In this document: positions 30,638 through 63,886 of the stretch, one piece after another | How positions within the stretch are numbered: position 1 is the stretch's first letter | Layout of the letters: every line of letters begins with the position of its first letter | From: Candidatus Obscuribacteraceae bacterium | GTDB lineage: Bacteria > Cyanobacteriota > Vampirovibrionia > Obscuribacterales > Obscuribacteraceae | Length of the DNA: 64,000 nucleotides | Assembly (NCBI GenBank): GCA_044226015.1 | Contig: JBGAHS010000001.1 | Coordinates: forward strand, 1,216,001 to 1,280,000 | Direction: 5' to 3' | Notes under the pieces: model-generated | What the model was told of the DNA's origin: nothing | The model's database searches: none | What the model saw: only the letters and a program-made list of their open reading frames with translations | Position numbers and translations under genes: made by a program

Positions 30638-31627
30638 TTATTCACCAAATATGTCTTTGATATTTGGATATGGATCTTTGCCTTCTTTGCACAGTTCAAT
30701 ATCCTCAATTAGGCGTGCAAAGTTTCTGGCTCTTCTTGCAGCATCATCGAGGTAATTCATAAAGTCTTGCCCTTCTATATCGCTTTCTTCCAAATGAGTT
30801 CGCAACCTTGAATTTCTGATTACCGCAGCTGTGATAGCTTTTAAGATGCAGTTATCAACCGGATCGGCGTCTGGTGAATTTTTGCCACCACCGCCGCCAC
30901 CATCACCGCCGCCACCATCACCGCCGCCACCACCGCCGTCATCGCAATCACCTTTGTCGTCGTCCTTGTCTTTGTCCTCGTCGTCCCCACTGTTATTATG
31001 CCTGCCTGGATGAGGATTTGTTGGTGCGGGAGGTTCTTGTGGTTTGGGCCTAGGAACTGGCATGGGACGAGGAATCATTAGCGGTGGTACCCGCATGGCT
31101 ATTGTGCCCATCCCGCTGGAGTCTTTAGATGAAACTGGGTTATTGTCTACGTATCCATAAAGGTTTACCCCGCCGTTTTCGCCAATCGAATCTCGATTGA
31201 TGAACTTAGCTCCGTTCGCATTGTAAAATCGTGTGACCGTTGCGTACAAAGACGATCTTGAATTCAGGTAATATCCGGCGTATTGAAAATCCGAGTCTCC
31301 GGAGCCTTGGATTTTTGTTTTGACTCCGTACGGATCATAGCTATACTGCGCAATCACGCCACCGGTGGCGTCAATCATTTCTCTGATACTTCCGGGTGAA
31401 GCATCCAAAGTGTAGAAGTAATTACTTCCAACTCCGCTCACGAAGTTCCTTTGTCCCAGAGCCAAGAATAGCTTTCCGGTGCTTAAGGACCCTGTTGCGT
31501 CTCTCTCCTCTACTCTTTCAGACCGACACCACAAATGTTGCTTCGCAGACGTGACACTGCCAGCGGTGCGCTCCTCGATTTTCGTGGCGCGCGAAAGTGC
31601 ATCATACGAAAATTGGGTGATGTTTCC
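30638..31627 (-). CDS. Silent Rhs cassette 5 (frame open to 31717 through the leader)
   Basis: Site, core, NPVSSKDSSG, Pro/Asp/Gly linker, helical tip. Confidence 0.88.
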   Translation of the reverse strand, partial: GNITQFSYDALSRATKIEERTAGSVTSAKQHLWCRSERVEERDATGSLSTGKLFLALGQRNFVSGVGSNYFYTLDASPGSIREMIDATGGVIAQYSYDPYGVKTKIQGSGDSDFQYAGYYLNSRSSLYATVTRFYNANGAKFINRDSIGENGGVNLYGYVDNNPVSSKDSSGMGTIAMRVPPLMIPRPMPVPRPKPQEPPAPTNPHPGRHNNSGDDEDKDKDDDKGDCDDGGGGGGDGGGGDGGGGGGKNSPDADPVDNCILKAITAAVIRNSRLRTHLEESDIEGQDFMNYLDDAARRARNFARLIEDIELCKEGKDPYPNIKDIFGE

Positions 31628-31912
31628 GGATTTTTGAACGGTAGCTTCGTCTTTGGAAAATATGAGTCGTGCGCCTTGAAAATTTGGATTGCCACCATTT
31701 AAGGTGCCCATGGTCAAGACAGAATCTATTCACCACACTCAGCGTTTTTGCCTGTCCAGAGAGTACAGCCCCACTCTCACTGCGGCAGTTGCTATTCTTT
31801 TGGTTATCTTTTTTTTTTTGACGAACAAAACCGGTTCAAAATTTATTCTTTTGTTTTCGCTCCCTAGCAATCGCGGTCTGCTTAGCGACCTGAGATGGGA
31901 CTCTGTATTTTT

Positions 31913-32476
31913 TTACCTGAATCGATTTCGAATATCATCCCAATCGCAATCTGACTTCCATCCACCTAAAGCTAGTTCCGGATGAGCTATAAATAAGTCG
32001 GTAAAAATCTTATCGGTTTCAACCAGCAAACTCCCAATTCGTCTTCTGTAGAGTCTTTTATCTTCGTCGCTCTTGCTCAATTCATAAAGAAAACAACTTC
32101 TATTCAAGAGAAGTGTTACATGAGCCATAATTTGCCTAATTTGGATAGCAATCACTTCATCATCAAAAGCTAAGTAATTTGCTACTTTTGGACGTTTCCT
32201 TTTCTTGGAAAAATCAGTTGGCGTATTGATCTCATCTGAGCTTGAGTCTTCATTTTCAGGACTCAGAACTTCATAGGAAATATGCCTAAATTCAGGCATG
32301 CGAGCCACTTCCAATAGTTCTTCAACGTTCGCAAGGAGCTTATGCAAAAGTGGATTGAGCAACTTAATCCGCTCGGCAGGTTCTTCCTGCAATGCCCACA
32401 GGGTGTACTTTAGAATCCACTCAATTTGCTCTATTGTTTCCTCTGTAGCAACATCACCATAGTTTTGCTTATTCAT
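31913..32476 (-). CDS. Putative immunity/partner of cassette 6
   Basis: TAATG coupling at 32476. Confidence 0.6.
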   Translation of the reverse strand: MNKQNYGDVATEETIEQIEWILKYTLWALQEEPAERIKLLNPLLHKLLANVEELLEVARMPEFRHISYEVLSPENEDSSSDEINTPTDFSKKRKRPKVANYLAFDDEVIAIQIRQIMAHVTLLLNRSCFLYELSKSDEDKRLYRRRIGSLLVETDKIFTDLFIAHPELALGGWKSDCDWDDIRNRFR

Positions 32477-33399
32477 TATCTCCTCCCATTCGGTATCCAT
32501 CGGGTAAAAGTTCTGTTCCAGAATCCTGTTTTGTACCAGTCTCCGCCGAGAGAAGGACAACCGGCCCTAGCCTTACATTCATCTACACATCTACGAAATG
32601 GCCACCCTTGGGGACAATGTGTAGGCAGTTCTTTACCACAATCGTCGATGCATTTTTCTTCTACTTTTTTACATTTTGGGCTTAATGGGGTCCCCTCCCC
32701 AGTTCCAGTGCGTGGACCGAACCTTGGACCCATGCTTCGCCCCATAGCATCCCAAAGATCAGTAAATGCGGGGCCAATTTCATGTCCATGTTCCTGTATC
32801 CATTTTCCACCAATATAAATTGCCACTGCGCCACCGGCAACAATAATGATAACAGGAGCAACAACCACAGCCATACGACCATCAGGATCAATTTGATTAA
32901 TGGGATCCGAATTCACATATTGGAACAGATTAGCCCCTGAAGTTTCTTGGATGATGTCTCTACTTATGAATCTAGCTAGAGTTGAGCTGTAACCTCTGTA
33001 TTCAGATAAGCTCAAAGACGCTCGCGCTTGAAAATAATAGCTTGTAAAAAGGAAGTCGGCAGCACTTGAGCCATTGATTTTAGTGACTTGGCCAAAAGGA
33101 TCGTAAGCGTATTGCGCTTCTATAGTAGTAGTGCTTGACACAGTTTTTGTCATCTCGCGTGTTGAGCTGAGGTGATCTGCTGTATAGAAGAAATTAGTGG
33201 AAGCTCCACTACTGAAATTAGATTGACCCAGTTTTAGAAATTGTTTTCCATTGTTGAGAGAGCCAGATGCATCTCTTTCTTCGCAACGAGTTTGCTCACA
33301 CCAAAGATGTTGTTTCGTCGACGTAACACTGCCACCCGTGCGCTCCTCAATTTTTGTGGCGCGCGAAAGTGCATCATACGAAAATTGGGTGATGTTCCC
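32476..33399 (-). CDS. Silent Rhs cassette 6, Cys-rich tip
   Basis: Open frame checked manually from the site; DPINQIDPDG; CKKVEEKCIDDC..CVDECKARAGC. Confidence 0.88.
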   Translation of the reverse strand, partial: GNITQFSYDALSRATKIEERTGGSVTSTKQHLWCEQTRCEERDASGSLNNGKQFLKLGQSNFSSGASTNFFYTADHLSSTREMTKTVSSTTTIEAQYAYDPFGQVTKINGSSAADFLFTSYYFQARASLSLSEYRGYSSTLARFISRDIIQETSGANLFQYVNSDPINQIDPDGRMAVVVAPVIIIVAGGAVAIYIGGKWIQEHGHEIGPAFTDLWDAMGRSMGPRFGPRTGTGEGTPLSPKCKKVEEKCIDDCGKELPTHCPQGWPFRRCVDECKARAGCPSLGGDWYKTGFWNRTFTRWIPNGRR

Positions 33400-33529
33400 G
33401 GTGCAGGCAACTTGGATCCTCGATGTTTTCTGGTTGCGCTTGGTTTGGAGTATTTCGAGTGCTGCGTGTATTGCGACTGTATGCTATTCTTAAATCCAAA
33501 GGTCGCAGCAAGCAATAGGAGCGTAAAGT

Positions 33530-33991
33530 ATGACGAGATCAAGCTTGGAACAACGCTCTATACTGCCGACGCCCGCCGATATAGAAGTCGCTAAGGCTTC
33601 GGAACCGAAGATTTGGGACATGATTGCGGCGAAAAAATCACCGCCCAGATACACAGTTTCAGATAGCAGAGGCACTAGCATCGAGTTAAGCGAGGCCGTA
33701 TTTAAGGTGCTGCTGGAAGCACTTAGAGCGATGGCTTGTGGGAACGCAGTTATGCTGGCGCCGATTGAAGCCGAAGTGACAACACAACAAGCAGCTGAAT
33801 TGCTCAATGTGTCTCGTCCTTTTTTGGTTGGACTGCTGGAGCAGGGCAAAATTCCATTTCGCATGGTAGGCAGATATCGCCGAATCAAATATCAGGACAT
33901 CCTGGACTATCAGGCTCGCAGAAGTCACCGCCGCAAACAAGCAATGGGTGAGTTGGTTTCATAAGCGCAAGATCTTAAGCTTGGTTACTAG
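33530..33991 (+). pseudogene. Excisionase-like HTH antitoxin with a premature stop near the C-terminus
   Basis: EVTTQQAAELLNVSRPFLVGLLEQGKIPF..VGRYRRI; ELVS*AQDLKLGY*. Confidence 0.8.
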
Positions 33992-33998
33992 ATAATTA

Positions 33999-34141
33999 AT
34001 GGACCACAATTCCGCTGTTGTCTACGACGCATGTGTGCTGTTTCCTGCGCCTCTACTTCATCTCTTGGTGGAGTTAGCAGCCGAGGCGCATGACGCCGGC
34101 TTGTTTAGAGCTAAATGGACTGCACGAATTCATGATGAATG
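33999..34141 (+). pseudogene. Truncated PIN-domain toxin
   Basis: MDHNSAVVYDACVLFPAPL..GLFRAKWTARIHDE* directly after the HTH gene. Confidence 0.75.
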
Positions 34142-34353
34142 AAGTCGCCGGTGATGATGAGAAGCCTGTTGTCTTGAACGATACCAAAACTTTGGAAAGC
34201 TGATAACGAGAATGCCTTGCTCGCTAAGTGCTTTTCCTCAAGTGTGAAAACTCGCGTTCCATAACCGAGAATGCCACAACAACAGCGATTTATATATTAC
34301 TGCATCGTGAATTCCAATTTGCAATTTGCCATGTCCTGTTGTTCACGAGTAAA

Positions 34354-35445
34354 TCAGCCCTTTGGCAGATCAGATTCTGACAAAGATTGCCCGGACTGAA
34401 CCTTCTGCATGAATTTCTCAACCTCCACAGATAGAGCCTTGTACTTCAGTACGCGATTCATTTTCAAGATCCTCAAACTCTGTTTTTTACCGGCAGATAG
34501 ATTTGAATCATCAACAGAAATTTGATCATCCTTCGACAGAGCGAGCAAGTAATTCCTCAAAAAATTCAATACCAAATTGGTTTGACCCATGCTTAAAACT
34601 TGAAGAATGAAACCAAGGTCGATGTCTTTCGGATAGCAAACAGTTGAAGCGCAGATTGCACCTAAATGCACTTCTGCTTCAGGAAAATTATCTTCCAGAA
34701 GGCAAGCTTTAAGCATTGCTAGCTTTCCCCAGAAGAAAGCGAAAGGCAAAATCGTCCCAATAGGATTTTCTGCGAGAGAAAGCAAAATGCCTCCGCATCG
34801 CTTGGCTGAACCTGGCATTTCTTTGAGCAAGGAAAGCGAAATCAGATCATTCAGCATCATTTGCTTATAGGTGTTTACATAAGAAGAACTATCATCGACA
34901 AATTCCAATGCCTTTTCTAAATAATCTATAGCGAGAGTGACGCATTCGTTTGATCGTGGACCAGAGCGATATGATTGCTCTGTATAGAGCTGAGCAAGCG
35001 CTGTAAGCCACTTGAGTTGGTTAGTTGGATCAACAGATAGTCCCCTGGAAAAAAGCTTTTCGCTTATCTGTTCGTCGAATAACTGGTGAAATTTTGCAGC
35101 ATTAAAAATGATGGCAGCGTTTTCAGGGTTTCGTTCCAGAGCGTCCAGCCACAGAGCAGATATACTCTTGTAATGATCGTCATTTCTATCGAATGTTATC
35201 TGAGCTAGAATTTCAAGATTGGCACTAGTCTTGATCAACTCAGCTAGAAGTGCTGAGAATTTGGTTAAAGAGTTTTCGTCAGAAGAAACTCTCAAACATC
35301 CTAAAAGCGATATTTTCTGCAACAAAGTTGCACGCCCTGTTTCTAAGGCTGTTTCAATAGTCATTCTCTCGTTTTTTGATAGCTGCGAGCCTTGATTGTA
35401 GGAATAAAGCAGGACTGCTGTTGATTCCGGATCAGAAAATTGCAT
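34354..35445 (-). CDS. TPR-like helical protein downstream of a Cys-rich tip remnant
   Basis: WLDALERNPENAAIIFNAAKF..DPTN..W..ALAQLY; similar to 52316-53155. Confidence 0.65.
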   Translation of the reverse strand: MQFSDPESTAVLLYSYNQGSQLSKNERMTIETALETGRATLLQKISLLGCLRVSSDENSLTKFSALLAELIKTSANLEILAQITFDRNDDHYKSISALWLDALERNPENAAIIFNAAKFHQLFDEQISEKLFSRGLSVDPTNQLKWLTALAQLYTEQSYRSGPRSNECVTLAIDYLEKALEFVDDSSSYVNTYKQMMLNDLISLSLLKEMPGSAKRCGGILLSLAENPIGTILPFAFFWGKLAMLKACLLEDNFPEAEVHLGAICASTVCYPKDIDLGFILQVLSMGQTNLVLNFLRNYLLALSKDDQISVDDSNLSAGKKQSLRILKMNRVLKYKALSVEVEKFMQKVQSGQSLSESDLPKG

Positions 35446-35551
35446 GGTACTTCTTCCAAATGCTACGTGAATATATTCTATGCCAGTCTTCTAATTAAGG
35501 ACAGATTCCTTCGGAATACGATTACCGCGAAAGGCAAGTGAATCCGATTCT

Positions 35552-36079
35552 CTATTGACCACTACCAGGTTCTCCTCGCTCCCATAGGGCATCAATGCAG
35601 TTTTTCCAGTGACTGCCTGGGAATTTTGGTTCGTTGGACCTCTTACAAGCCTCACCTTTGCCATGGCAGCAGCTAATACATTCTTGATACTGTTTTTCAT
35701 CTGGAGCTAAACCTTCAGGTCCCACCCAGTAAGCGCAGGCTGACTTGCATTTTTCAGTGTTGGTATCACAACATCCATGATCATCCTTCTTGCGATATAC
35801 AATCTTCATTTTCCGAGGATGTACCTTCAGCATGTGCTTGGAAAACCGTCGCACAATCATGTCTCGCATGCAGTTCGCTTGCTTCTGCGTTTCGCAGTGA
35901 ACAAGCGCGTCGTCTGCATATCTCGTGAATGGTACATCTGGGAAGCTTTTGGATAGCCAACTGTCGAACACGTGGTGCAAAACGATGTTACTCAACAAGG
36001 GTAAAATAACTGAGCCCTGAGGGCTTCCGCTCTTTCTTTCTTCCAATGTTCCATTCTGCTGAACACCACCACAAGTCAT
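35552..36079 (-). pseudogene. Group II intron reverse transcriptase fragment fused in frame to a Cys-rich tip remnant
   Basis: GSPQGSVILPLLSNIVLH..FTRYADD..LKVHPRKMKIVY, then an abrupt switch to HGCCD..CKSAC..CISCC. Confidence 0.8.
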
Positions 36080-36186
36080 TCACCGATCAAAGACTGGTTC
36101 AAATGGTCCACGACTGAAACAAACACCATTCCTGTCATTTATTGCACGCACGCTGTGAAGCACGATAGGATTAAGAATATGTCACT

Positions 36187-36651
36187 TTAATGAAGTTCCA
36201 GCGCAAGCTGTCTTGATTTATGAGCCTTCATATGGATCAAAACCTTCCACTGCTTTCCGTCACGGGTCAGTTGCGCGCTCATAGATTCATAAATATGTTT
36301 ATTTTCTGGGGAAGTCGGAAATGGACTACGAAATTCCAACGGAAGATTTCCAATAGATTGAATACAAATGAGATTAAACATAGCGTTCTTGCTTTTTTTC
36401 AATGGTCTTATATTCTGCACTTTGCCTACTTCGTTGATCGAAAAAAAACACTGGCTTGAGGCTTCTTTAGCCGAGGTATCTATCTTTTCCGCACAAGCTT
36501 TTTGCACATTTTGAGCAAGAACATTCTCCATCTTGTGGTGCCAGTCCGCCCATGAAGGAGACTCATAAAAGGGCGCCGAAAGATCAGTGCTCCACGATGG
36601 TGTGATCACCGAGGCGGAAAAGAAAATGGCTAGAAGTGCTACGTTCCTCAT
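36187..36651 (-). CDS. Secreted putative immunity protein of cassette 7 (TonB-C-like)
   Basis: ATGA overlap with the tip stop; signal peptide. Confidence 0.6.
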   Translation of the reverse strand: MRNVALLAIFFSASVITPSWSTDLSAPFYESPSWADWHHKMENVLAQNVQKACAEKIDTSAKEASSQCFFSINEVGKVQNIRPLKKSKNAMFNLICIQSIGNLPLEFRSPFPTSPENKHIYESMSAQLTRDGKQWKVLIHMKAHKSRQLALELH

Positions 36652-37616
36652 GGCGTAACTTTCAATCTGATCTGTCGTGGAGGATTATATTCTTCGTAAG
36701 GCAGTCCTGACATAGTACGTGAGAAATTTTCCAGCAGCATGGAGTATTTCTCCCAGTCGGGTGTGGATCCCCGATGCGATGGAGGATCGTAATTTGGATC
36801 CTCAGGACTTTGAACTCCTAAGACTATTCCAAGAGCATGCCCTATCTCGTGAGCTAGATTGATTTTTGAGGGGCATTTGCGTCGTCGGTTGCCTTCAGAT
36901 GAATCATGGCCTAAGTGAATCATAATTGCCCCACCACTAAATTCTGTAGTCGAAGGAGCAGTTCCACCCTCAATGTCTTGCATAATGAAAATGTTTCGAT
37001 CTGAATTTTCCAAGAAGTCCATGACGCTGGGCATTTCCTTTTGGAGAGTTTGAAAATCGGAATTCATTTGATCATCCCCCGTCACCCAGAATTTCAATCC
37101 AAGTGGATCTGAAAATATAGTGGACATATTCCTTACATAGCCATAGAGATTGATGCCACCGCGTTCAGCGATTGGATCGCGGCTAATGAATCTTCCCAGC
37201 CCAGCATTATAAGCCCTATATACCGGCATGTTGAGTCCACTTCGAGCATGGGCATAATATCCAGCATACTGCATATCAGCTGACACGGAGCCACTCACGA
37301 AGGTTTCAGTCACCACACCATAAGGATCAAAGCCGTATCTAGTCTTAATGGCACCAGCTGAATCGGTGAGTTCTCTGCTAGAACCAAGGTGGTCGCGGGT
37401 GTAGAAATACTTCGGAGGCGTCCCTGAAGCGAAATTAGCCTGTCCCATAATAAAGAACTGCTTCCCATTGCTTAGACTGCCTGAGCCATCTCTTTCTTCG
37501 CAGCGTGATGAGCCGCACCAGACATGTTGCTTCGTAGAAGTGACACTACTAGCGGTGGTTTCCACAATCTTGACGCATCGGCTAGCCGCATCATACGAAA
37601 ATTGGGTGATGTTTCT
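36648..37616 (-). CDS. Silent Rhs cassette 7, zincin metallopeptidase-like tip
   Basis: Site, core, FSDPLG; NLAHEIGHALG (HExxH) with downstream Glu (EKYSMLLEN). Confidence 0.85.
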   Translation of the reverse strand, partial: RNITQFSYDAASRCVKIVETTASSVTSTKQHVWCGSSRCEERDGSGSLSNGKQFFIMGQANFASGTPPKYFYTRDHLGSSRELTDSAGAIKTRYGFDPYGVVTETFVSGSVSADMQYAGYYAHARSGLNMPVYRAYNAGLGRFISRDPIAERGGINLYGYVRNMSTIFSDPLGLKFWVTGDDQMNSDFQTLQKEMPSVMDFLENSDRNIFIMQDIEGGTAPSTTEFSGGAIMIHLGHDSSEGNRRRKCPSKINLAHEIGHALGIVLGVQSPEDPNYDPPSHRGSTPDWEKYSMLLENFSRTMSGLPYEEYNPPRQIRLKVTP

Positions 37617-37682
37617 GGTGCAATTTGAATGGATTTCAGCGGAGCAAGAAGTTATTCACGCCTGCCCTCCGGGTAACAAGGA

Positions 37683-37772
37683 CGCAATTCGACGACTACA
37701 CGCAGGCATGTTTGTAGGCAACGGTGATAAGCAAAACATTTCTGAAGCTTGTCGTCCAAGTCGCATTGCTGC
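37683..37772 (-). pseudogene. FimB/FimE-like tyrosine recombinase remnant (box I region)
   Basis: With small indels reads AAMRLGRQSFRNVLLITVAYKH.LRV..VVELR. Confidence 0.6.
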
Positions 37773-37859
37773 AAGTGCAATTTGTTAGCTCGTTCAGGTT
37801 GTTGTAGCCATAGGCTGTGTCCAGTACCTGGCTCAAGCGCTCTTGTAACTTACAGATTG

Positions 37860-38432
37860 TTAGCCAGCTTGTTTCTTGCCGTATTTCTTCTTTTGCTCAG
37901 TTCGCAATTCCTGGTCTAGAATATCACTTATCTGATCCAATCTAAGCTTCACATGTCTTTTTAAAACAGGTTCCGCATTCAGATAGACATTGCTGAAAAG
38001 TACATTAGCTTCCGTGAGTACTTTGTTGTAGTTGCATTCGGCAGAAACACGCTCATTTGAAAGCGGGACCATTTCTGGAATCTGCGCTTTGAGTGCAAGT
38101 GCCTGCGCAAACAATCTATCAGCTTTTTCTGTAATTTCTACAGGTGTCAGCAGTCTCTCTATTTTGTGTTCATTCTCGCGAACATGTTGCGTGATAACTT
38201 TGCGCACATATGGTTGATAGCCAATACCTTCAAGCCGGGCGAGTTGTTTCATTTGCTCGATTAGTATTTTGGGCATTCGAATCGAAATCAATTGCAACCC
38301 GGTAGCATCATCCAAAGCTTGTTGTTGCACTTCAGACGCAGGGCGTGCATGCTCCTCCGAAGCACCTAACTCTTTATTATCCCATCGCTCTGCATCTTCA
38401 TCAAATCGGCCAATGTCTTTCCTGCTAACCAT
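37860..38432 (-). CDS. CopG/BrnA-like RHH antitoxin with C-terminal extension
   Basis: WDNKELGASEEH..LDDATGLQLISIRMPKILIEQMKQLARLEGIGYQPY. Confidence 0.75.
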   Translation of the reverse strand: MVSRKDIGRFDEDAERWDNKELGASEEHARPASEVQQQALDDATGLQLISIRMPKILIEQMKQLARLEGIGYQPYVRKVITQHVRENEHKIERLLTPVEITEKADRLFAQALALKAQIPEMVPLSNERVSAECNYNKVLTEANVLFSNVYLNAEPVLKRHVKLRLDQISDILDQELRTEQKKKYGKKQAG

Positions 38433-38434
38433 GT

Positions 38435-38730
38435 TTAAAGCCTCACCGAGTATTTTTGGTAAATGCGTTCTTCGTTTTCATCAGGCTCATAAGCTGACTT
38501 GATCACAACTTCCAAAGCCGTCAGCTGAATGAAGACAATCTTCAAACGTCTGCCTAAGTCGTTCTCTGAGATGAACCATTGTGTTGGAGGATCGGTCCTG
38601 TGTTCTTCGCGATCGTCTAACATTGCAGATTTAGTTTGGTTGCCGAAGCACTGGAGAATATCGAACTGATCTACACCGTGACGATCACGTAGTTTCTTTT
38701 TTCGATTTCATTGCTAATTAGCAGTATCAC
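38435..38730 (-). pseudogene. BrnT-like toxin, frameshifted in an A-run near 38700
   Basis: GAGGAG RBS + GTG 38730; KLRDRHGV..QCFGN..DDREEHRTDPPTQWFISE..GRRLKIVF..IKSAYEP. Confidence 0.7.
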
Positions 38731-38829
38731 GGACTCGCTCCTCGTATGTACAAGTCAATTAAGTCCGGCAGAATTTATGGCTCCTGCAACAATACCCTTT
38801 TTGGGTGCTTTTTTGGTAATCCCGGGCTT

Positions 38830-39016
38830 TCCACCTCGAATTTCAATTCATCGGTCTCTGCCGTTTGGATTTGAGACTCAAGTGCTTTAGCCGGGTTTTC
38901 TTGCGCGCGCAGGCAATACTGCAACGTCAAAATGTTCGGCCATGTGCAGAAAATCGGGGTTGATTTCTGGTTCGTATCGGTCGGCCCTTGTTACAACGCC
39001 TTTCGGATTGTCTGGC
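38830..39016 (-). pseudogene. istA: IS21 relic, 3' part (istA continuation joined to an istB-like N-terminal stub)
   Basis: PDNPKGVVTRADRYEPEINPDFLHMAEHFDVAVLPARARKP, then KALESQIQTAETDELKFE. Confidence 0.75.
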
Positions 39017-39143
39017 TTTTGTGTCCAAAGGAAATATGTGGCCGATTAGCGGCCGCACGGCTGTGCGGCTGGGGGAGCCCTTTGACCGCGGCACATAATT
39101 GTCAAAGTGAATTTAGCCAATTTAGCAAATCCTTGTCGTCACG

Positions 39144-54156: not shown

Positions 54157-54307
54157 GGTCGGATTTGATTGGATTTTAGAGGTCTTTAATCACCATTTTT
54201 TTTTCGAAACTCCATTGCGGTTAGACTGGGTGACGAAACTGAACCACCAAATCCTATTCGAATTGAACCACCACTGGTAAGGGCACCATCACCGCTATCC
54301 CATTGCT

Positions 54308-54634: not shown

Positions 54635-54636
54635 AA

Positions 54637-55683
54637 TTATCTCCGAACACCATTAGGATAAACGTTAGTATAACCACCACCGGGTTCTTGCACATCCCAA
54701 TGAGGTCCGCCATGAGCATTAGGAGATCCTTCTGGTCCAGTCGGTACCCAAACATTGCCGCTTGCATCTTCCCAGCCGTAGCCTGACCCATTGGGATTTT
54801 TTACCCAGTTTGGACCACCTTTGGGCTCTTCGTACCCAGTCGCTGGATGATTCGCTGGATTACCAGGAGCTTTTGGACCATTAGGATCGTGTGCATTGTC
54901 AGGTGGCTTCATGCAGAGGGTGTTCGGCAAAATACCTTGCGCTGGCTTGTAGCCAGCTAGTTGTCCAGCCAAATTGCTAAGTCCTCCAGCGAAGCCGCCT
55001 ACAGCACCAAGACCTAATCCCCCCAACCCAGCTCCTGGGAACGCCAAGATCCCACCTGCTTCGATTGAGATTGCACCTCCTGCAATACCGCCAGCAACCA
55101 TACCGGCCTCGATTCCTGCAACGGCCCCTTGGTTGGCAGCTGATTGGACTTGCCCCCAGTCAATCAAACCAGTTGGATCTCGCCGTGAAATCGGATTGCT
55201 CCCTGCGTAAGCATAGAGATTCGAACCACCTGCAATTCCAATGGGGTCCCTGTTAACGAACCGCCCACGAGTGGGCAGGTAAGCTCTGTAAGAGGGCAAC
55301 AGTAAACCGCTCCTGGGGTGAGCATAATAACCCGCGTACTGCATGTCGGCATCACCACTCCCCTGGGTCTTGGTTACTTCACCATATGAAGAATAGCCAT
55401 ACTGGGCAACGATAGCGCCAGCGCCATCAGTCATCTCCCTGATACTGCCAGGCGGATCATCCTTGGTGTAGTAGTAGCTAGTGCCACTACCACTTGTGAA
55501 GTTCCTTTGCCCCAAGGTGAAGAATTGCTTTCCATTGCTCAAGCTCCCCGACGCATCTCTTTCCTCACACCTTTGCGTCCCGCACCAAAGATGTTGCTTC
55601 GTCGAAGTGACACTGCCTGCAGTGCGCTCTTCAATCTTCGTGGCGCGCGAGAGTGCATCATACGAAAATTGGGTGATGTTTCC
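54637..55683 (-). CDS. Silent Rhs cassette 14, polymorphic toxin type 37 (Ntox37)-like tip
   Basis: DPNGPKAPG..WVKNPNG.GYGWEDASGNVWVPTG..AHGGPHWDVQ.PGGGYTNVYP. Confidence 0.87.
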   Translation of the reverse strand, partial: GNITQFSYDALSRATKIEERTAGSVTSTKQHLWCGTQRCEERDASGSLSNGKQFFTLGQRNFTSGSGTSYYYTKDDPPGSIREMTDGAGAIVAQYGYSSYGEVTKTQGSGDADMQYAGYYAHPRSGLLLPSYRAYLPTRGRFVNRDPIGIAGGSNLYAYAGSNPISRRDPTGLIDWGQVQSAANQGAVAGIEAGMVAGGIAGGAISIEAGGILAFPGAGLGGLGLGAVGGFAGGLSNLAGQLAGYKPAQGILPNTLCMKPPDNAHDPNGPKAPGNPANHPATGYEEPKGGPNWVKNPNGSGYGWEDASGNVWVPTGPEGSPNAHGGPHWDVQEPGGGYTNVYPNGVRR

Positions 55684-56108
55684 AGTGCGTGAGGACTTGA
55701 TCTCGCTGATGAAATGAGGTCAATGCACTAAGCAAAAGTCGGAACATGTGCCGTGCTGCAAAAGAAAAATGATCTGGTGCTAGCGGGTGCTTGACTGTTA
55801 TCTTGCAGGTTCCTTAGGTGTCTGATCACTTTTAATTCTTAATTCAGCTTAGTCTGCTGCTTTGCAGATACGCCTCAAACACAATTATTTTTTTTGCGCG
55901 TAGCCGCATCCTCGGTTCTTTCAGGTTGTCCTAACAAACCTTGTCTATTACTCTATTACTAGAGCATGGAAATCATTTCTTCCTCGTTCAGTCTATAGTT
56001 CTTTGATCCTTGCGTACGCAGACGCAATTCGACGACTTTTGAAACACGCATAGCATGCCTATAGTCAACAGTGATAAGCAAAAAATCTCTGAAGCTTTGC
56101 TACAAGAG
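55658..56108 (-). repeat. 451-bp inverted repeat, left copy (leader + site)
   Basis: Reverse complement of 63436-63886; no mismatch seen in the stretches compared. Confidence 0.95.
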
Positions 56109-56367
56109 CCAGGTCTTTTACTTCAGCTTGAGTCAAATTCTAGAGCTCTTCGATCAAGATCTGTATGTTTAATCGGTGCCAAATTTTTTAGCCGAAAATG
56201 GTGTTTGAAGAGATATGCGGTTTGAAATAGGCGAAAACAACGGTCAGATGGTTCAAAGTCAAAGATAGCTGAGAACAGTCCTTTTCGGCTATCTTTATGT
56301 AGAGACAGAGGTTAATGGCTCTAATCTTTGCAAAGAAATTCTTTCTATAGGGAGAAGGGTGACATTG

Positions 56368-56790
56368 TCATAAAGCCACTCTGATAAATACTTTCTGATT
56401 CATCCTATCAACCAATTCACATGCGGATTTGAGATCAGTAAGTATTGTCAGAACTGATTTGTCAGTATAGTTACGAGCTATTACAGGATCGTATTTCTTC
56501 CATTGCTTGACCAAACTTTTTAACTCTTCCTTACTAGCTCTCCATAGAAAGTTGACCACGTCGGCAGGTATTTGGTATAGCCAAACGGTCTCCGCAACCG
56601 AAGTGTATAAGATCGGAATTGCATCCTCGTCATACTTAGTGCGAGTTACGATGGATAACAGGCTAGCCACGTTCGCTGGCATTAAATCGGGGATCAGTAA
56701 TTCCCCTTCTTTCTCAGAAAAGCCAGGGTGCTCACACCTCCGCTTAGCAGAAGCAAGTGTTCCGACAAGTATGTGTGTCATAATGCCCAA
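56368..56790 (-). CDS. Hypothetical, probably an orphan immunity protein
   Basis: MGIMTHILVGT..VWLYQIPADVV..W..LTDLKSACEL..VFIRVAL reads as a compact natural protein; head-to-head with the Rhs body. Confidence 0.6.
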   Translation of the reverse strand: MGIMTHILVGTLASAKRRCEHPGFSEKEGELLIPDLMPANVASLLSIVTRTKYDEDAIPILYTSVAETVWLYQIPADVVNFLWRASKEELKSLVKQWKKYDPVIARNYTDKSVLTILTDLKSACELVDRMNQKVFIRVAL

Positions 56791-59700
56791 AATAGAAGAC
56801 CCAACCTTCGATACTGATGGTACAAAGTGGATCACCGCAGCCGCACTCAACTCTGAGACCGACGGCTATTTCATGATTCCGTCAGATCAAATGAGCGCTG
56901 CGTGGACTTTGCTTGATGCTGACCAGGCAAAAGCAATTTGGGGAAAGGGTTACGCTCTGCTTCCTCAACAATTCAAAACACCAAATTGCCCCAAATCACC
57001 TTGTACAACAGGCTGCAGTTGCCCAGTAAATGGGATGCCGAAAGCTTCAGCTTTTTCTATGAATGCCACACTCAATATTGTGGATACGCCGCTGTCTTAT
57101 TCGCCACCAATTGGTCCAGACATGGGCGTGGTCGTTAATTACAATTACAACGAAGCTGAGCAACCCTCAAATTTCACCTTCACAAATCTTGGGCATAACT
57201 GGAGCCTGAATTGGCTCTCTTATCTCACTATTGATAGCACTGACCCCATTCATCGAATAGTGAAAGTGAGAGTTAGAGGCGGCGGTTATGAGCAGTACAC
57301 CGAGCCATTTGGGAACAGAAATCCTTATTCTCTTGCGATTATTGCAGAAGTAAACAATGCAGGAGTAATAAGTTGGGAACGACGGATGCCTGACGGAAGC
57401 GTCGAAAAATACGAAAGAAAAAATGCTGCCGGAGACACCTTCTTTCTTACCCAGGTTGTTGACCCTCAGAACAACGCAGCCGTTCTGTCTTACTCATCCA
57501 ACACAGTTACAGATCCAGGCTATTTCCGCCTGGCTTCAATTACTGATGCCTGTGGCAACTCTCCGATGACGGTGACATACGATTCAAACAGTTCAACAGA
57601 CCCCGGCTATTACAAGGTTACCAGCGTTGCCGATGGCTTTGGCCGCTCTGCCAGCTTTGCATACAGCTCTGACAAAAGCCAATTGCTCAGCATTACCGAT
57701 GCGGTTGGAAACCAGTCAAAATTTTCCTATCAGACTGACACGGACTCAACCTTTATAAACCTTATGGTCACGCCCTACGGATCTACTGGATTCTATCGGT
57801 ACACACCAGCGGGTGCGACGGGAGCCGTGCCGGAAGGAATGACGTTCACACTACCAGATGGTTCAAGCACACGAATTGAAAATTGGTTGGGCGAACTCAA
57901 ATATACTTATTTTTGGGATAGAGAAGCCTCTGAGATGTATCCGGACGATGCATTCAACAATGTCTACACGCACTGTCAGACTACTCGCTGGCTGTACACA
58001 CCTAATTCCGTTCAGACATCTATCCCTAGTTGGACCAGAAAGCCACTGGAAGCACCCGTAAGCTATTACTTTCCGGGTCAGACTGGCTGGAACCAAATTT
58101 CTGGTGGATTTGTGCGTGTCCAGCAGATGTCGCAACAACTGGTTCCCATTAAGAACACGATAACTATTGGCGGAACAATTACCGCAGGAAATATCATCAA
58201 GGTAGAACTCGATGATCTTGGTCTCCCCGAGGGACTTACACAGGTTTCTTACACGGTTGTTGCGGGAGACACGACAAGCACAATAGCTGCGGGGTTGGTT
58301 CAGAGTATAAACAATTCGACGCCCTTGCAAGCCTTTGGAATCACCGCCACTTCCGTGGGCAACGTAGTGACAGTTAGTTCCCTTACACCAAATGACTTTG
58401 ATAGCAGCAAATTTGTTAATAAGTCAGGAGCGGTAACTGAGACTTTGACTTTTACCACTGGAACCAATCGAGTTCAGAACTTCACTTGTAGTGGAACCGC
58501 TACGGCGGGGCAAGTCTACGCGATAACAGTCACTGACTCCACCTTGCCTGGTGGTTCACAAACTATTAGCTACACCGTTCAAACTGGAGATAGCAACGCC
58601 GATATAGCTCAAGCGCTGTCACTTGGCGTAAATGCAAATGCAAACCTTCAAGCTTCGAAGATTTCGTCTGCATGGAGTAGTGCCTTCTATATTGGAGTTG
58701 GACAAACACCTTCAAGTACAGCCAACCCTGTGATTGGTGTTCAGACAAATTCAACCAGCAGCACCACGTATTCTGGCACCGTTAATGGTGCTGCAAGCGC
58801 TAACTTTAGCAGTGCAACCAGTGCTCATGGTCTAGTTAAGGCAAATTACAACCTCTACACTGACGTTGGCAATCCGAACCCTACTGCGATAATCGATCAA
58901 TTAGGAAGACGACTAGACATCACTTATGCGGCAAACGACATTGACGTAATCAAGGTCCTCGAAAATGCGGCGCTGCATTCAAGCCTGGTTGGCTATTGGA
59001 CGTATGGAACCGTTCCACATAAGCCGACCGCTGCCTACGATTCATCACTGCAGCACACTCTCTACACCTACCAGAGTAACGGCGAGCTGGCTACCGTAAC
59101 AGACCGAAACGGAGCCACCACAACCTACAATTACAACGCCAACAGTTATCTCAGCTCCATCGATGGACCATTAAGTGGCAACCAGGACGTGACTACATTC
59201 TCCTTCTACGGGTATGGTCTGCCAAGCTCAATCACAGACTCTGAAGGCTACACGCTCAACTTCTCTTACGACGGTTTGAACCGTTTAACCAGCACTGCGT
59301 TTCCTGATGGCACCACAGAAGACACCAGATATAATCGGCTCGATGCTGTAATGATGTCTGACCGTATTGGCCGGTGGACTCAGCGAACCTACGACAGCAT
59401 GCAGAATTTGGTCTCCGAGGTTGACCCGCTTGGACGACAAACGAAGTATTGTTGGTGCCATTGTGGTGGTCTGGCATCATTGACTGACCCTGCAGGCAAT
59501 ACCACAAAATGGCATCATGACCTGGAAGGTCGCGTTATTCAGAAGGAATACGCTGATGGTTCTCATTACGACTACGTCTATGAAACCACAAACAGCAGAA
59601 TCGCTTCAATTTCTGATGCCATTCAGCCGACTCCGCAAAGCACCATTTTCACCTACAACCTGAATGATTCTGTTGCCGTCAAGCGCTATGCCAATGCCGT

Positions 59701-62680
59701 GAACGCAACATCTCAAGTTGTGTCTGCATTCGACCCATACTTTGACCGTCCGCAATCGATTTCTAACGGCTGGGGACAATACAATTACAAATACTACCCT
59801 TATTACAAGGACGCGTTCTTCAACCCTGATAATGGCTGGACATCAATTGTTGTTGGCGGCATCCCCGAGGTGCCGAACGCGACAGACACCATCAGTATTG
59901 TCTTCTACAGCTCTAACCTCGCGGGAGGACAATATACTTTCAATTACACGGTTCCTGCCGGTGATGTTGGAAACACGAATCAGCTAGCAACGCATCTTTC
60001 AGCTGCTATCGATGCTGATACGACTTTGAACAATGCGGGAATCAATCCTAGCCTCAGCAGTAATTTTGTAATTCGAATTCACAACCAAACTGTGGACCTT
60101 CGGGTGGCACCGACGGCGACTGGCGGAACCATTGTCACCTGTGGCTCAGGCAAGCTGAGCGATGTCACTAACACTGTGATTTCTAACTCGCAAATTTCCT
60201 ACGGGTACGATGGCGAGGGCAGAACTCAAGCCAGGCTCATCAATGGAGGAAACAATCAATCCAGGTGGACCTTCGACGCGATGGGTCGAGTCACCACAGA
60301 GCTCAATCCATTAGGTACCTTCAACTATGCCTACATCGACAACACAGCGGGCTCTTCAAAGGGTGTAAATCGACTCGCCTCGATTACTTACCCGAACAGC
60401 CAGGTTACAAATTTCAGTTGGCTGCCGAACATCGGCGACCAGCGCTTACAACAAATTTCGAATCTAAGTCCGAGCGCGACTACCTTGTCGAAATTTGCCT
60501 ATGCCTACAATTCCGCCGGTGAAATCACGCAATGGCAGCAGCTGCAGAATAGCGTCAATACCCACCTCGGGCTGGCTTATGATAATGCTGGGCAGCTGAT
60601 TACAGCAGTTTCTGATTCGGGCACTCTGTTCAAAGCATACATAGCCGGAACGCCTCACGCAGGCGATGTCGTCTCAGTTACTGCCTATGATGCATCGCTG
60701 ACCGGCACGACGCCGGTTGGCCAAGAGACTGCATCTTATACAGTTGTCGGCGGTGACACATCGGCGACCATCGCCACAAATCTTGCTAGCGCAATTACTT
60801 CCGTGATGGGAACGAATCTGGGTCTGAGCGCATCAGCCAGCGGCAAAGTTATTTCCATAACTACATCAGCTACCCGTGCAACGCAATTCACTTCCGCGGT
60901 CAGCGGAGTTGGTGCCACGGATACCATCATCATGGACCGTGGTCAGCCAAGCGGCAACCGACACAGCCAGCTCTACTATGCCTATGATTGCGCAGGCAAT
61001 CGCACCGGGGTGCAAGGCGACAGCACTGGCAGCTTCGGAGCTGGCGGTCTGAACACAAACGCCACAGCCTATGGCTACAACAACCTGAACGAGCTAACAA
61101 ACTATGCTCCCGGTGGTCCAATCAGATTTGAAGGAAGCACCACGAACCCGATCATTTCTGCGGTGGCAAATGTCACGAAAACGGTCACCGTTACGGGCTC
61201 GGTTACTGCTGGCGACAAATTGACGGTTAGTGTCCATGACCCTGCCATCACAGCCGGAAAGGACATCACCTACACGGTTGTCGGAGGCAACACAACTACC
61301 GATATTGCGACTGGCTTGAAAAATCTAATCAATGCCGACTCTACCCTGTCTTCGCTAGGCATCACTGCCACTTCAAGTGCTAACGTCTTGACCATTACAT
61401 CGACTTCAGCCAACAAGACAATGTACTCGGCGAGCAAGAATACTGGAGCTAGCGAAACACTGACTCTCAACGCCTCAGCCTCGGACACTGCGCTAATCAG
61501 TCCTTCGACTGCATTCAGCTCAAACCCGAAGCTTGCATTGAGTTCGAATACTGTTAAGGTAACGGCTAAGAGTGGCGGCGGCACAGCGGCAACCAATTCG
61601 TATCCAATAAGCATCAACTCGGCGTCATCTGCGACACTGCAATACGACGCGAATGGCAATATGACGAGCGACGGAACAAACACCTACTCCTGGGATGCCG
61701 AAAATAGGCTGATTCAGATTACTTATCCGGGCTCGGGAAATAACACCCAATTTTCGTATGATGCACTTTCGCGCGCAACGAAAATCGAGGAGCGCACTGC
61801 TGGCAGTGTCACTTCGACGAAGCAACACCATTGGGCGGGACTGCAAAAACGTGAGGAGAGAGATGGAGCAGGAACTTTAACAAATGGCAAGCTTTTCTTT
61901 GCAGCTGGAGAAATTAGCTTCGTAAGCGGAGCAGCATCAAATTGCTTTTTCACGCAAGACCATTTGGGCTCAACCAGAGAGTTTACTAGCTCAATCGGAG
62001 GAACTTTTAGCGTTCAAGCTGTCTACGCCTATTCTCCCTATGGGAATGCCGTTAAAGTCGCTGGCAGCAATGACACCAATTTCCAATTCGCAGCGATGTA
62101 CACAAACTTGCGCTCTGGAGTTGTGCTCACTTTAAAGCGCGAATTTTCACCAACATTGGGGCGCTGGCTCAGCCGCGATCCCCTTGGCGAAATAGTATCC
62201 AATAATCTTTTTGATTATGCAGACAACAATCCGGTATTATTTGTTGATGTTTTGGGACTAGCACCGATTACCGGTCCCACCGTAATCGGTCCCGCTTGCC
62301 CCATAAAAGGAAGAGATCCTTGCGCAGATCTACTGGCAAGTATGGCAAGCCGAATTTCTCAAATAAACCATGAAGTTGAATTGATGTATTCGGACCCTGG
62401 AGACTTGTTCCATTTGGCTTATGCTACTCCTAATCCTGCGAAAACTGGACACCGATATACTTATTTCGGACACGCTATGGAAATTGAAAACTACCAAACC
62501 AGTCTTGGTAAAAGTTATAAAAAAGCTGTCGAGATGGGATGTTTAGGCATACCCACGTCTGAAGTAAAACGAGCGCTAAATGCGGAGATTCCTATGATGC
62601 CTGCGGGCGAAACTGAGCTTCACTTGTCTGGAAACGAACTGAAAGCAGTTATGAGAATGCTCAGTGGCGGAAAGAAATAA
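56783..62680 (+). CDS. Large Rhs/YD-repeat toxin body with currently attached tip; appears 5'-truncated
   Basis: Many YD repeats, GRWLSRDPLG..NNPVLFVDVLG; begins in IEDPTF..ETDGYFMIP..W..AKAIWGKG; track residues 56507-56782 are probably the antisense of the neighbouring gene. Confidence 0.9.
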   Translation: MPKIEDPTFDTDGTKWITAAALNSETDGYFMIPSDQMSAAWTLLDADQAKAIWGKGYALLPQQFKTPNCPKSPCTTGCSCPVNGMPKASAFSMNATLNIVDTPLSYSPPIGPDMGVVVNYNYNEAEQPSNFTFTNLGHNWSLNWLSYLTIDSTDPIHRIVKVRVRGGGYEQYTEPFGNRNPYSLAIIAEVNNAGVISWERRMPDGSVEKYERKNAAGDTFFLTQVVDPQNNAAVLSYSSNTVTDPGYFRLASITDACGNSPMTVTYDSNSSTDPGYYKVTSVADGFGRSASFAYSSDKSQLLSITDAVGNQSKFSYQTDTDSTFINLMVTPYGSTGFYRYTPAGATGAVPEGMTFTLPDGSSTRIENWLGELKYTYFWDREASEMYPDDAFNNVYTHCQTTRWLYTPNSVQTSIPSWTRKPLEAPVSYYFPGQTGWNQISGGFVRVQQMSQQLVPIKNTITIGGTITAGNIIKVELDDLGLPEGLTQVSYTVVAGDTTSTIAAGLVQSINNSTPLQAFGITATSVGNVVTVSSLTPNDFDSSKFVNKSGAVTETLTFTTGTNRVQNFTCSGTATAGQVYAITVTDSTLPGGSQTISYTVQTGDSNADIAQALSLGVNANANLQASKISSAWSSAFYIGVGQTPSSTANPVIGVQTNSTSSTTYSGTVNGAASANFSSATSAHGLVKANYNLYTDVGNPNPTAIIDQLGRRLDITYAANDIDVIKVLENAALHSSLVGYWTYGTVPHKPTAAYDSSLQHTLYTYQSNGELATVTDRNGATTTYNYNANSYLSSIDGPLSGNQDVTTFSFYGYGLPSSITDSEGYTLNFSYDGLNRLTSTAFPDGTTEDTRYNRLDAVMMSDRIGRWTQRTYDSMQNLVSEVDPLGRQTKYCWCHCGGLASLTDPAGNTTKWHHDLEGRVIQKEYADGSHYDYVYETTNSRIASISDAIQPTPQSTIFTYNLNDSVAVKRYANAVNATSQVVSAFDPYFDRPQSISNGWGQYNYKYYPYYKDAFFNPDNGWTSIVVGGIPEVPNATDTISIVFYSSNLAGGQYTFNYTVPAGDVGNTNQLATHLSAAIDADTTLNNAGINPSLSSNFVIRIHNQTVDLRVAPTATGGTIVTCGSGKLSDVTNTVISNSQISYGYDGEGRTQARLINGGNNQSRWTFDAMGRVTTELNPLGTFNYAYIDNTAGSSKGVNRLASITYPNSQVTNFSWLPNIGDQRLQQISNLSPSATTLSKFAYAYNSAGEITQWQQLQNSVNTHLGLAYDNAGQLITAVSDSGTLFKAYIAGTPHAGDVVSVTAYDASLTGTTPVGQETASYTVVGGDTSATIATNLASAITSVMGTNLGLSASASGKVISITTSATRATQFTSAVSGVGATDTIIMDRGQPSGNRHSQLYYAYDCAGNRTGVQGDSTGSFGAGGLNTNATAYGYNNLNELTNYAPGGPIRFEGSTTNPIISAVANVTKTVTVTGSVTAGDKLTVSVHDPAITAGKDITYTVVGGNTTTDIATGLKNLINADSTLSSLGITATSSANVLTITSTSANKTMYSASKNTGASETLTLNASASDTALISPSTAFSSNPKLALSSNTVKVTAKSGGGTAATNSYPISINSASSATLQYDANGNMTSDGTNTYSWDAENRLIQITYPGSGNNTQFSYDALSRATKIEERTAGSVTSTKQHHWAGLQKREERDGAGTLTNGKLFFAAGEISFVSGAASNCFFTQDHLGSTREFTSSIGGTFSVQAVYAYSPYGNAVKVAGSNDTNFQFAAMYTNLRSGVVLTLKREFSPTLGRWLSRDPLGEIVSNNLFDYADNNPVLFVDVLGLAPITGPTVIGPACPIKGRDPCADLLASMASRISQINHEVELMYSDPGDLFHLAYATPNPAKTGHRYTYFGHAMEIENYQTSLGKSYKKAVEMGCLGIPTSEVKRALNAEIPMMPAGETELHLSGNELKAVMRMLSGGKK

Positions 62681-63317
62681 ATTGAAAGGACTCGAGGCAA
62701 CTATCGCTCAACTTTACGATTCCTTCGCAGAATATAGGCAAGGAAACATGAATTTGAGCAAGAGGCTCAAAAACATTAGCAACTCCGAAATATATCAGTA
62801 TGCCTCAGATGTGATAAATATTGCGGAGGTGGACGAATATCTGCATTACCTCCCGCGAATTTTGGAGTGTGCTACGGAATCTCAATGGCAGTTAGGGGAC
62901 ATCTTTCAAAATATCGGTATCTGTCTCCATTTTGGAACTGTAAGTTCTGAGCAAATTTCAACTTTGCGAGAATTCTTGCTGGAATGGTGGAGAATTCAAA
63001 TCCAGTCCCCTTGCACGATTACAACAATTTCTCCGATTGCTGAATTCTTGATAGACCTCAACCGAGGATTTGACGATTTAGAATGGCTTCTAGAGGTATG
63101 GACCGCTGAAAATAGCGATAACGCCTTTGCCAATCTTAGTGGAATGATCTATACCGCAGTGATGCATAAGGCATTATTTTCTGAGGAATTGAGCAGGCAA
63201 ATAACTCGATGGTTGAGTTGTGAATCTACTAGAAGTTGGATTGCTTTTGGAATGCAACAATACAGTGGACAGCCGTGGTGTAGCGAGTTAGTAGAAAATC
63301 TCAGCTACATCTCCTAA
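62664..63317 (+). CDS. Putative cognate immunity protein of the attached tip
   Basis: Overlaps the Rhs stop; LYDSFAEY..YLHYLPRILE. Confidence 0.75.
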   Translation: MAERNKLKGLEATIAQLYDSFAEYRQGNMNLSKRLKNISNSEIYQYASDVINIAEVDEYLHYLPRILECATESQWQLGDIFQNIGICLHFGTVSSEQISTLREFLLEWWRIQIQSPCTITTISPIAEFLIDLNRGFDDLEWLLEVWTAENSDNAFANLSGMIYTAVMHKALFSEELSRQITRWLSCESTRSWIAFGMQQYSGQPWCSELVENLSYIS

Positions 63318-63435
63318 TGAAGCAGGGGGTGGGTTGGCGAGTTTAATTGTGGAAACTGGGGACTAACGACGATGCAAACTCACACTTTAAGAATTCCCGT
63401 GTGCGGAGGAAATAGGCGCGACGACATCCAGCACA

Positions 63436-63886
63436 CTCTTGTAGCAAAGCTTCAGAGATTTTTTGCTTATCACTGTTGACTATAGGCATGCTATGCGTGT
63501 TTCAAAAGTCGTCGAATTGCGTCTGCGTACGCAAGGATCAAAGAACTATAGACTGAACGAGGAAGAAATGATTTCCATGCTCTAGTAATAGAGTAATAGA
63601 CAAGGTTTGTTAGGACAACCTGAAAGAACCGAGGATGCGGCTACGCGCAAAAAAAATAATTGTGTTTGAGGCGTATCTGCAAAGCAGCAGACTAAGCTGA
63701 ATTAAGAATTAAAAGTGATCAGACACCTAAGGAACCTGCAAGATAACAGTCAAGCACCCGCTAGCACCAGATCATTTTTCTTTTGCAGCACGGCACATGT
63801 TCCGACTTTTGCTTAGTGCATTGACCTCATTTCATCAGCGAGATCAAGTCCTCACGCACTGGAAACATCACCCAATTTTCGTATGA
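63436..63886 (+). repeat. 451-bp inverted repeat, right copy; contains a tyrosine recombinase remnant at 63448-63525
   Basis: SFRDFLLITVDYRHAMRVSKVVELR; ends in the 26-bp site. Confidence 0.93.

Follow-up and report, generated by a model that had tools for sequence, protein, structure and literature searches.

The 64,000-nucleotide (nt) stretch analysed here, the window (C11:1216001-1280000 of the source genome, G000, a Candidatus Obscuribacteraceae bacterium), carries from 21.7 kb onward an Rhs toxin locus, locus A, in which a 26-bp site recurs at the head of one toxin-tip cassette after another and once more, in frame, inside the full rhs gene. Comparison with a sister locus and with related genomes indicates that this site is probably the core of a tyrosine-integrase attachment site within rhs, at which insertion or exchange of tips would use a predicted 7-bp overlap, with homologous recombination likely adding further mosaics. 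While Rhs displacement with orphan tips is known, an integrase-linked site inside rhs appears to be new.

A repeated site in rhs and in detached tip cassettes

Locus A comprises 14 minus-strand cassettes, a plus-strand rhs frame and the plus-strand cassette A15, and continues past the window with two further plus-strand cassettes (A16 and A17), giving 17 orphan tip cassettes in all. Each cassette is built from the site, ~490 nt of Rhs core, a C-terminal toxin tip, a likely immunity gene and a tail, and measures 1.3-2.6 kb, except for two with insertions (4.2 and 7.7 kb). In line with an Rhs polymorphic toxin system, we found a long YD/RHS-repeat protein, an Rhs-associated core and a variable tip (PF05593, TIGR01643, TIGR03696), with TIGR03696 matched in both tips scanned, A1 and A14. 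Ntox37 was recognized in A14, Imm53 after A12 and DUF4279 after A3, most tips matching no family; tip and downstream gene of a cassette are likely to constitute a toxin-immunity pair. Two tandem DUF4279 genes follow tip A3 (25416-26173) and one more follows A15 (L001:4789-5262), all encoding likely immunity proteins. The sites and the rhs gene are laid out below, position 1 of the site being the first G of GGAAAC; cassettes 5, 11, 12, 14 and 15 of the original prediction correspond to A5 (31627, minus strand), A11 (50384, minus), A12 (51954, minus), A14 (55683, minus) and A15 (63861, plus).

21696..55685, minus strand: array of 14 orphan cassettes (fragment cassettes detached from rhs), inverted relative to the rhs gene
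23446..23472, minus strand: site A1; preceded by 916 nt with 97% identity to the sequence upstream of sister-locus site B2
25230..25256, minus strand: site A2
27198..27224, minus strand: site A3
29799..29825, minus strand: site A4
31603..31629, minus strand: site A5
33375..33401, minus strand: site A6
37592..37618, minus strand: site A7; core divergent from +30
45334..45523, minus strand: site A8 with 165 nt of upstream rhs sequence (97.6% identical to the rhs gene); single long fragment, departing from rhs at +29
46942..46968, minus strand: site A9
48275..48301, minus strand: site A10; degenerate in the assembly
50360..50386, minus strand: site A11
51930..51956, minus strand: site A12
54132..54158, minus strand: site A13
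55659..55685, minus strand: site A14
56507..62680, plus strand: rhs open frame, 2057 amino acids
61734..61760, plus strand: rhs-gene site, putatively attB/attL-like; left arm -2..8, right arm 16..25; in frame (GNNTQFSYD)
61744-61750, plus strand: predicted 7-bp overlap CACCCAA within the rhs-gene site
62664..63317, plus strand: likely immunity gene of the attached tip, judged by its position and its overlap with the rhs stop; no family match
63859..63885, plus strand: site A15; core beyond +26 of divergent type

Conservation peaks within the site. In an alignment of 23 of the 25 copies (18 from locus A and 7 from sister locus B, with A10 and A13 omitted for indels), mean identity was 1.000 at positions 9-15 and 0.991 at 16-25, as compared to 0.77 at -2 to 8 and 0.79 at 26-45; the 7-bp spacer at 9-15 was unchanged in all 23. 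Third codon positions were invariant at 6/6 in 9-26 versus 0/24 in 27-96 (Fisher 1.7e-6), or 3/24 in the latter segment once the divergent cores A7, A8 and A15 were set aside (Fisher 1.4e-4), p-values that are overstated because the site copies are kin. When compared with their own rhs gene, 19 of 23 orphans mismatched at positions 6 and 8, and A17 and B5 at position 6 only. The match to rhs begins at 7-9 in 21 of the 23, A8 being the sole longer fragment and A10 degenerate. Since orphans mismatch rhs at 6 and/or 8 and upstream, exchange with rhs falls at or after position 9 (7 for A17 and B5). The crossover is likely to be narrower than 26 bp, with positions 9-15 as the predicted 7 bp.

Site B5 reads CATACAAAAA-CACCCAA-TTTTCGTATG, i.e., two 10-bp inverted arms, matched at 9 of 10 positions, around the spacer at 9-15. 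A dyad as good as this one occurs anywhere in 29 of 4000 random 60-mers; in relatives, a second dyad (8/10 by eye) lies at L019:14253. Inverted arms flanking a 7-bp overlap form the usual core site of lambda-type integrases.

The integrase of the sister locus and its relatives

Sister locus B, in the same genome (C11:81169-100917), contains the site seven times, in five inverted orphans, an intact rhs gene (2309 amino acids) and one direct orphan. Its tyrosine integrase gene (C11:90592-89522) stops 38 nt before site B5, and residues R195, K222, H280, R283, H306 and Y316 are invariant across all 12 aligned integrase proteins. The protein does not qualify as an integron integrase (TIGR02249, 19.7 bits against a cut-off of 265), and no Rci family appeared among the names returned by the library scan, which included no comparison aimed at Rci. 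A promoter scan of the locus B head, i.e., integrase, accessory genes and the 5′ part of rhs, gave chance-level matches only. Here and in relatives, the rhs genes with a C39 peptidase-like part are preceded by a 285-amino-acid gene and a laminin-G/CHB_HEX gene (L004:933-3123).

Named relatives of this integrase come from Obscuribacterales/Melainabacteria, and homologues are present in 68 of 103 family genomes. An Rhs core lies nearby for 25 of the best-scoring 30 homologues, two of the other five residing on contigs shorter than 4 kb; the wider locus set includes loci picked for Rhs proximity. For 19 homologues in 11 genomes an orphan core follows the integrase within 1.5 kb, for 14 within 400 nt, and in genome G019 integrase-orphan units stand in tandem behind a full rhs. 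An integrase thus adjoins the junction in locus B and at 19 loci of relatives, though not in the window locus. The relatives' orphans also share a fixed start: comparing orphans with their own rhs, the 7-mer at -20 to -14 was identical in 14 of 15 pairs (5 genomes), and position -21 matched in only 3 of 15. The 7-mers are locus-specific (AGATCAC, AGATTAC, AGATCGA, AGATCAA), and the match sets in abruptly at -20, 28 bp upstream of the source-genome site, with the same abrupt start at five more loci. Many source-genome orphans retain A(G/A)ATC(A/C)A at -20, perhaps as a relic of an older crossover site. A palindrome resembling GCACC-N6-GGTGC, ~15-30 nt left of the crossover and conserved by eye in one subclade (upstream of orphans at L009-L013, L015, L022, L126 and L166), is a candidate binding site.

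A quick IQ-TREE search on 80 rows, with six weak rows (<160 bits) omitted, placed all 44 Rhs-linked rows in one branch of 53 (SH-aLRT 99) together with nine rows unlinked by query, and all 27 rows outside the branch were unlinked. One of the nine, the source-genome homologue on C4, turned out to adjoin an Rhs fragment of another type; at this place (L108:8998-13097) the arm-bearing homologue and the fragment stand back to back. Its subclade (also L110, L111, L115 and L117) may target a different rhs position.

A third, fragmented array, at the ends of source-genome contigs C3, C5 and C13 and with no full rhs assembled for it, contains six orphans with the same spacer, which begin at the site, and eight with another spacer, which keep upstream rhs sequence, six of them at least 40 nt. 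Beyond the source genome, the looser site pattern in seven genus members returned two ordinary rhs matches and two chance matches without Rhs, and a metagenome scan with the integrase found no close relative with context (best 41%, on a short contig).

These observations can be accommodated by a displacement scheme. A circular cassette consisting of a core end, tip, immunity gene and cargo, with or without an integrase, would recombine at the site in rhs, giving rhs a new tip and pushing the old tip and its immunity gene downstream; repeated insertions would build the array. After integration the expected order would be rhs, site, new core, tip, immunity gene, cargo, integrase, site, old core and old tip. 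The reading frame would be preserved because both partners share the spacer, cassettes lacking an integrase would move in trans, and ordinary homologous recombination would make the deeper core mosaics. We regard tip displacement by an integrase, overlaid by homologous recombination, as the probable history of the locus.

Mosaic junctions and rival explanations

Three cassette pairs had led the original prediction to the site, and the similarities it described are real, all three far exceeding chance. Cassettes 14 and 15 had been said to have a common ~425-bp leader and to split past the site. Indeed, 55658-56108 and 63436-63886 form a 451-nt inverted repeat of 100% identity (425 nt of leader plus the 26-nt site), with differences from +27. 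Cassettes 5 and 11, reported to agree for ~700 bp downstream and to split just 5′ of GGAAAC, are 95.7% identical across 726 nt from position 1 and mismatched at -1 and -3 to -7. The related ~150-bp leader ascribed to cassettes 5 and 12, in front of different cores, was recovered at 80.6% identity across 139 nt (-142 to -4), in frame with the core as MGTLNG..RLIFSKDE..VQK, an old similarity. This leader supplies an in-frame ATG (31628-31717 and 51955-52050), so that independent translation of the two orphans is possible. The term leader itself has to be revised, as each such stretch belongs, in reading direction, to the end of the cassette before it. The mosaics had been called reciprocal, but strictly speaking none of the pairs is a reciprocal product. 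The stretches concerned are as follows.

30906..31627, minus strand: core and tip start common to A5, A11 (49665-50384) and A16 (beyond the window)
31631..31769, minus strand: A5 leader resembling the A12 leader (51964-52102), 81%
55684..56108, minus strand: first copy of the 425-nt leader L, natively the tail of the cassette whose rest is 56109-56790
63436..63860, plus strand: second copy of the 425-nt leader L, 100% identical to the first; no site at its left edge
56109..56790, minus strand: truncated cassette tail joined to about codon 324 of rhs; 3-nt overlap at 56788-56790
55962..56099, minus strand: remnant of a FimB/FimE-like small tyrosine recombinase in leader L; also at 63445-63582 (plus strand) and in the leaders of A7 and, past the window end, of A16
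37781..37819, minus strand: exact 39-nt scrap of the rhs interior (61063-61101) in the A7 leader

Where the pairs diverge bears on the further claim that breakpoints fall inside the 26-bp site, breaks far from it having been named as counter-evidence. A14/A15 is tightly bounded, parting at or before +26, whereas the A5/A11 break is confined only to the interval from -1 to about +63..+82, and other mosaics break deeper in the core or off-site. Two additional left-sharing pairs split just past the site, A8 and rhs at +29 and A7 and A16 at +30. With breaks both at the site and deep in the core, the mosaics alone indicate two processes. Site-specific exchange, as originally proposed, is therefore not established by the three cited pairs; it gains its support from the integrase, the dyad, the invariant positions 9-26 and the anatomy of the relatives.

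Several observations weigh against an integrase acting at this site. Off-site breaks separate A16 from A5/A11 at +96..+103 and A1 from B2 at +46..+80, A6 resembles A9 up to about +84..+104 and A12 thereafter, and the other edge of the A14/A15 repeat, 425 nt upstream, coincides with no site. To these we add the kinship of the site copies mentioned above. The dyad is strong in only one of 25 copies, the remainder matching at 2-5 of 10 positions, and the exact 18-nt core was absent from the other genomes (60 relatives searched). The locus B integrase lacks the arm-binding domain PF13356 that is present in all four homologues scanned, sits on a long branch of unsure placement inside the Rhs-linked clade, and its site lies 28 bp downstream of the relatives' crossover. 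Neither array contains a remnant of an integrase of the Rhs-linked family, and the window locus has no intact copy. The clade rests on a single quick tree, in which nine rows had no Rhs core by query. Finally, the contigs, which break at the repeat, showed neither an excised circle nor an empty site nor a switched junction.

These contigs derive from sequencing runs X1, X2 and X3, of which X1 and X3 are possibly the source sample and X2 is independent (runs X4-X7 held small shares, and X4 yielded scraps only). They bear on the present state of the window locus. Rhs A resembles rhs B only from 56788 (rhs B residue 324) onward, with 79% amino-acid identity to rhs B residues 324-2150. Its true sequence therefore starts at 56788, and the N-terminal ~323 amino acids of the sister protein (leader and C39 peptidase-like part) are gone. 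Contigs of X1 and X3 cross this junction. In X2, 56108-56790 and the 425-nt leader form the end of a minus-strand cassette on contig 12, and on contig 13 the rhs body extends 4652 nt upstream of 56788, similar to the distance from this point to site B5 (4625 nt). As rhs A starts only at residue 324 and the X2 contigs carry the two sides of the junction separately, the window strain likely lost its rhs head and integrase by deletion, and any present activity would consequently depend on the enzyme of the sister locus acting in trans. Of the window's modules, X2 has A10, A12 and the rhs body, and leaves the attached tip and the tips of A9, A11 and A14 without cover, a gap that is weak evidence.

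Could the mosaics be assembly switches across the repeat? The assembly does contain local errors at ~47.6-48.3 kb, differing from X1 contigs at 47641, 47985, 48131 and site A10; the degenerate A10 (joint 46963-48299) is probably one of them, since an X1 contig has the standard site. Moreover, cassette pairings rest on the assembly, as phase is lost across the site in short-read contigs. We nevertheless consider this explanation highly improbable, because X1 contigs run through the 56788 junction and through either edge of the duplicated leader, the independent X2 has the same modules with other neighbours, and the pattern recurs in 11 other genomes. Two lines of contig data were discarded: an X3 contig joining the integrase-side flank to an A5/A11-type core, where a 34-nt shared word at +44..+77 permits a graph chimera (depth 4.8), and contig ends at sites, which are uninformative about breakpoints.

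A more substantial rival is homologous recombination alone, in which a single orphan with a chance start at this point was duplicated into the array, RecA-type exchange in a conserved block of ~100-160 nt swaps tips, and the integrase is a neighbour in a mobile-DNA hot spot. It is in keeping with the breaks at +46..+80, +84..+104 and +96..+103, with a block that remains 74-84% identical up to +105, with a window lacking an integrase of the Rhs-linked family, and with the displacement model as set out in the accessible parts of PMC2935791 and PMC3967940. Yet it leaves unexplained why invariance is limited to 9-26 even in the divergent cores A7, A8 and A15, why a 9/10 dyad lies beside an integrase, and why relatives show a fixed start and a locus-matched 7-mer by their integrases. 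The published model also expects core fragments of varying length, a pattern that the 23 orphans do not display. On balance, we judge homologous recombination as the sole process to be unlikely.

Orientation raises another scenario. Orphans are inverted relative to their own rhs in 14 of 17 cases in locus A and 5 of 6 in locus B, and a constant 5′ part faces several 3′ segments behind opposed sites, the arrangement of a shufflon in which the head flips between inverted sites and takes tips from both arrays. This would be compatible with tip displacement by an integrase as a derived state. Site B5 and the rhs site delimit the locus B head, the X2 rhs contig ends close to where such a boundary would fall (see above), the locus B integrase is without an arm domain, and the array strand carries recent scraps of rhs. 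Conversely, no inverted junction was seen in the contigs, most relatives fetched have direct rather than inverted arrays, and one old off-site inversion yields the same layout. We therefore entertain a shufflon only tentatively. Equally tentative is the broader proposal that an Obscuribacterales integrase clade targets the rhs coding sequence to supply new tips, and that in the present lineage this integrase lost the arm domain, shifted the crossover by 28 bp and became the invertase of a toxin shufflon, with the rhs head flipping between two opposed arrays and switching reversibly among ~20 toxin-immunity pairs without loss.

Other recombinases within the array are very poor candidates for acting on the site, even though the RIT-like trio described below and the FimE-like recombinase are both tyrosine recombinases. 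The sister locus has the same site with neither gene intact, and the trio is not beside a site. The FimE-like pieces are remnants of ~50 codons (E 4.6e-4 and 2e-5 against PRK09871, scores far below the cut-off), with intact homologues in cargo, one of them beside Tni-like transposon genes. The A15 and A7 leaders (63436, 37781, 56108) have unrelated left flanks and join this remnant at positions that agree to within 2 nt, which reflects either a second fixed junction or chance.

Neighbouring elements and known systems

Two insertions and further elements accompany the cassettes.

39144..42420, minus strand: three overlapping tyrosine recombinase genes, RIT-like
34354..36079, minus strand: broken reverse transcriptase region, best match to a group II intron maturase (below cut-off); passenger

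The trio consists of three adjacent, overlapping tyrosine recombinase genes in about 3.5 kb, as in RIT elements; no convincing terminal repeat was found at 39144-42420, and it is probably a passenger. An IS66 element between A15 and A16 (L001:5785-8835) has a counterpart of 99.97% identity in the C3 orphan array. Trio, reverse transcriptase fragment and IS66 copy were dismissed as drivers, being single-copy or unlinked to sites. Short, recent scraps from the interior of each locus's own rhs in cassette tails, all in array direction, comprise the 39 nt at 37781-37819 (100%), 61 nt at G000:C11:83830-83890 (97%) and ~150 nt at 100698-100836 (88%), and are perhaps eroded rhs copies. A third full rhs (2883 amino acids; L006:5681-16149, contig C2) is followed by an immunity-like gene and a 195-amino-acid tyrosine recombinase with an upstream inverted repeat; this small recombinase proved unrelated to the leader remnants. 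Outside the locus, the window contains two clusters for RND efflux at 1713-19362, together with a gene of the Sir2 family (6456-7337) and its 480-amino-acid partner, and at 8834-9174 a 181-nt tandem repeat.

P4/lambda-type integrative elements integrate within a gene whose 3′ end they rebuild. The relatives' integrases share their arm and catalytic layout (PF13356 and PF00589), and the integrase by the right junction, the inverted arms flanking a 7-bp overlap and the displaced gene end are likewise reminiscent of such elements. Here, in contrast, the incoming 3′ end would be a different toxin domain with its immunity gene and would change the function of the target, units span 2-6 kb, and most cassettes lack an integrase. 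Bacteroides rAID arrays, which likewise grow by serial insertion, reportedly hold immunity genes only.

Since 2009, models of how rhs acquires a new tip and retains the old one downstream have invoked homologous recombination by way of a circle that has not been seen (Jackson et al. 2009, PMC2935791; Koskiniemi et al. 2014, PMC3967940). As outlined in the accessible parts of these papers, one long rhs, arrays of core fragment, tip and immunity gene, and a circle displacing the old tip match the situation here, which differs in fragments that start at one point, a conserved 7-bp spacer and a linked integrase clade. Integrase-like genes near Rhs arrays in Snodgrassella and Gilliamella (Steele et al. 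2017, PMC5727410) and XerC/D by polyimmunity loci (Zhang et al. 2012, PMC3482391) similarly place a recombinase near arrays, with capture proposed; the accessible text of either paper defines no site, crossover or fixed start. In the R64 shufflon (Rci/pilV; PMC3414803, accessible parts), a constant N-terminus, many C-terminal segments, opposed sites and an adjacent tyrosine recombinase recall the layout described here, where toxin-immunity cassettes of 1.3-2.6 kb instead form head-to-tail runs, the enzyme comes from arm-domain integrases, and inversion is hypothetical. Serial insertion at one point, pushing older cassettes back, also characterizes integrons and Vibrio type VI secretion system displacement (Kirchberger et al. 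2017, PMC5361080), the latter with no evidence for an integrase in the accessible parts of that work. Movement in trans of cassettes lacking an integrase would be a further likeness to integrons, from which our system departs in an enzyme that is not IntI and in a site inside coding sequence that makes a fusion. The full-text literature searched, in which subscription papers were mostly outside the search and supplements were not covered, defined no integrase site inside rhs.

The named enzyme clade, the predicted 7-bp overlap and matched site variants in several genomes make tip replacement testable with markers on plasmids. The two target positions 28 bp apart would provide a natural series for a change in integrase site, and, if the proposed mechanism is true, these loci would represent a case of integrative elements that carry the functional end of their own target gene.

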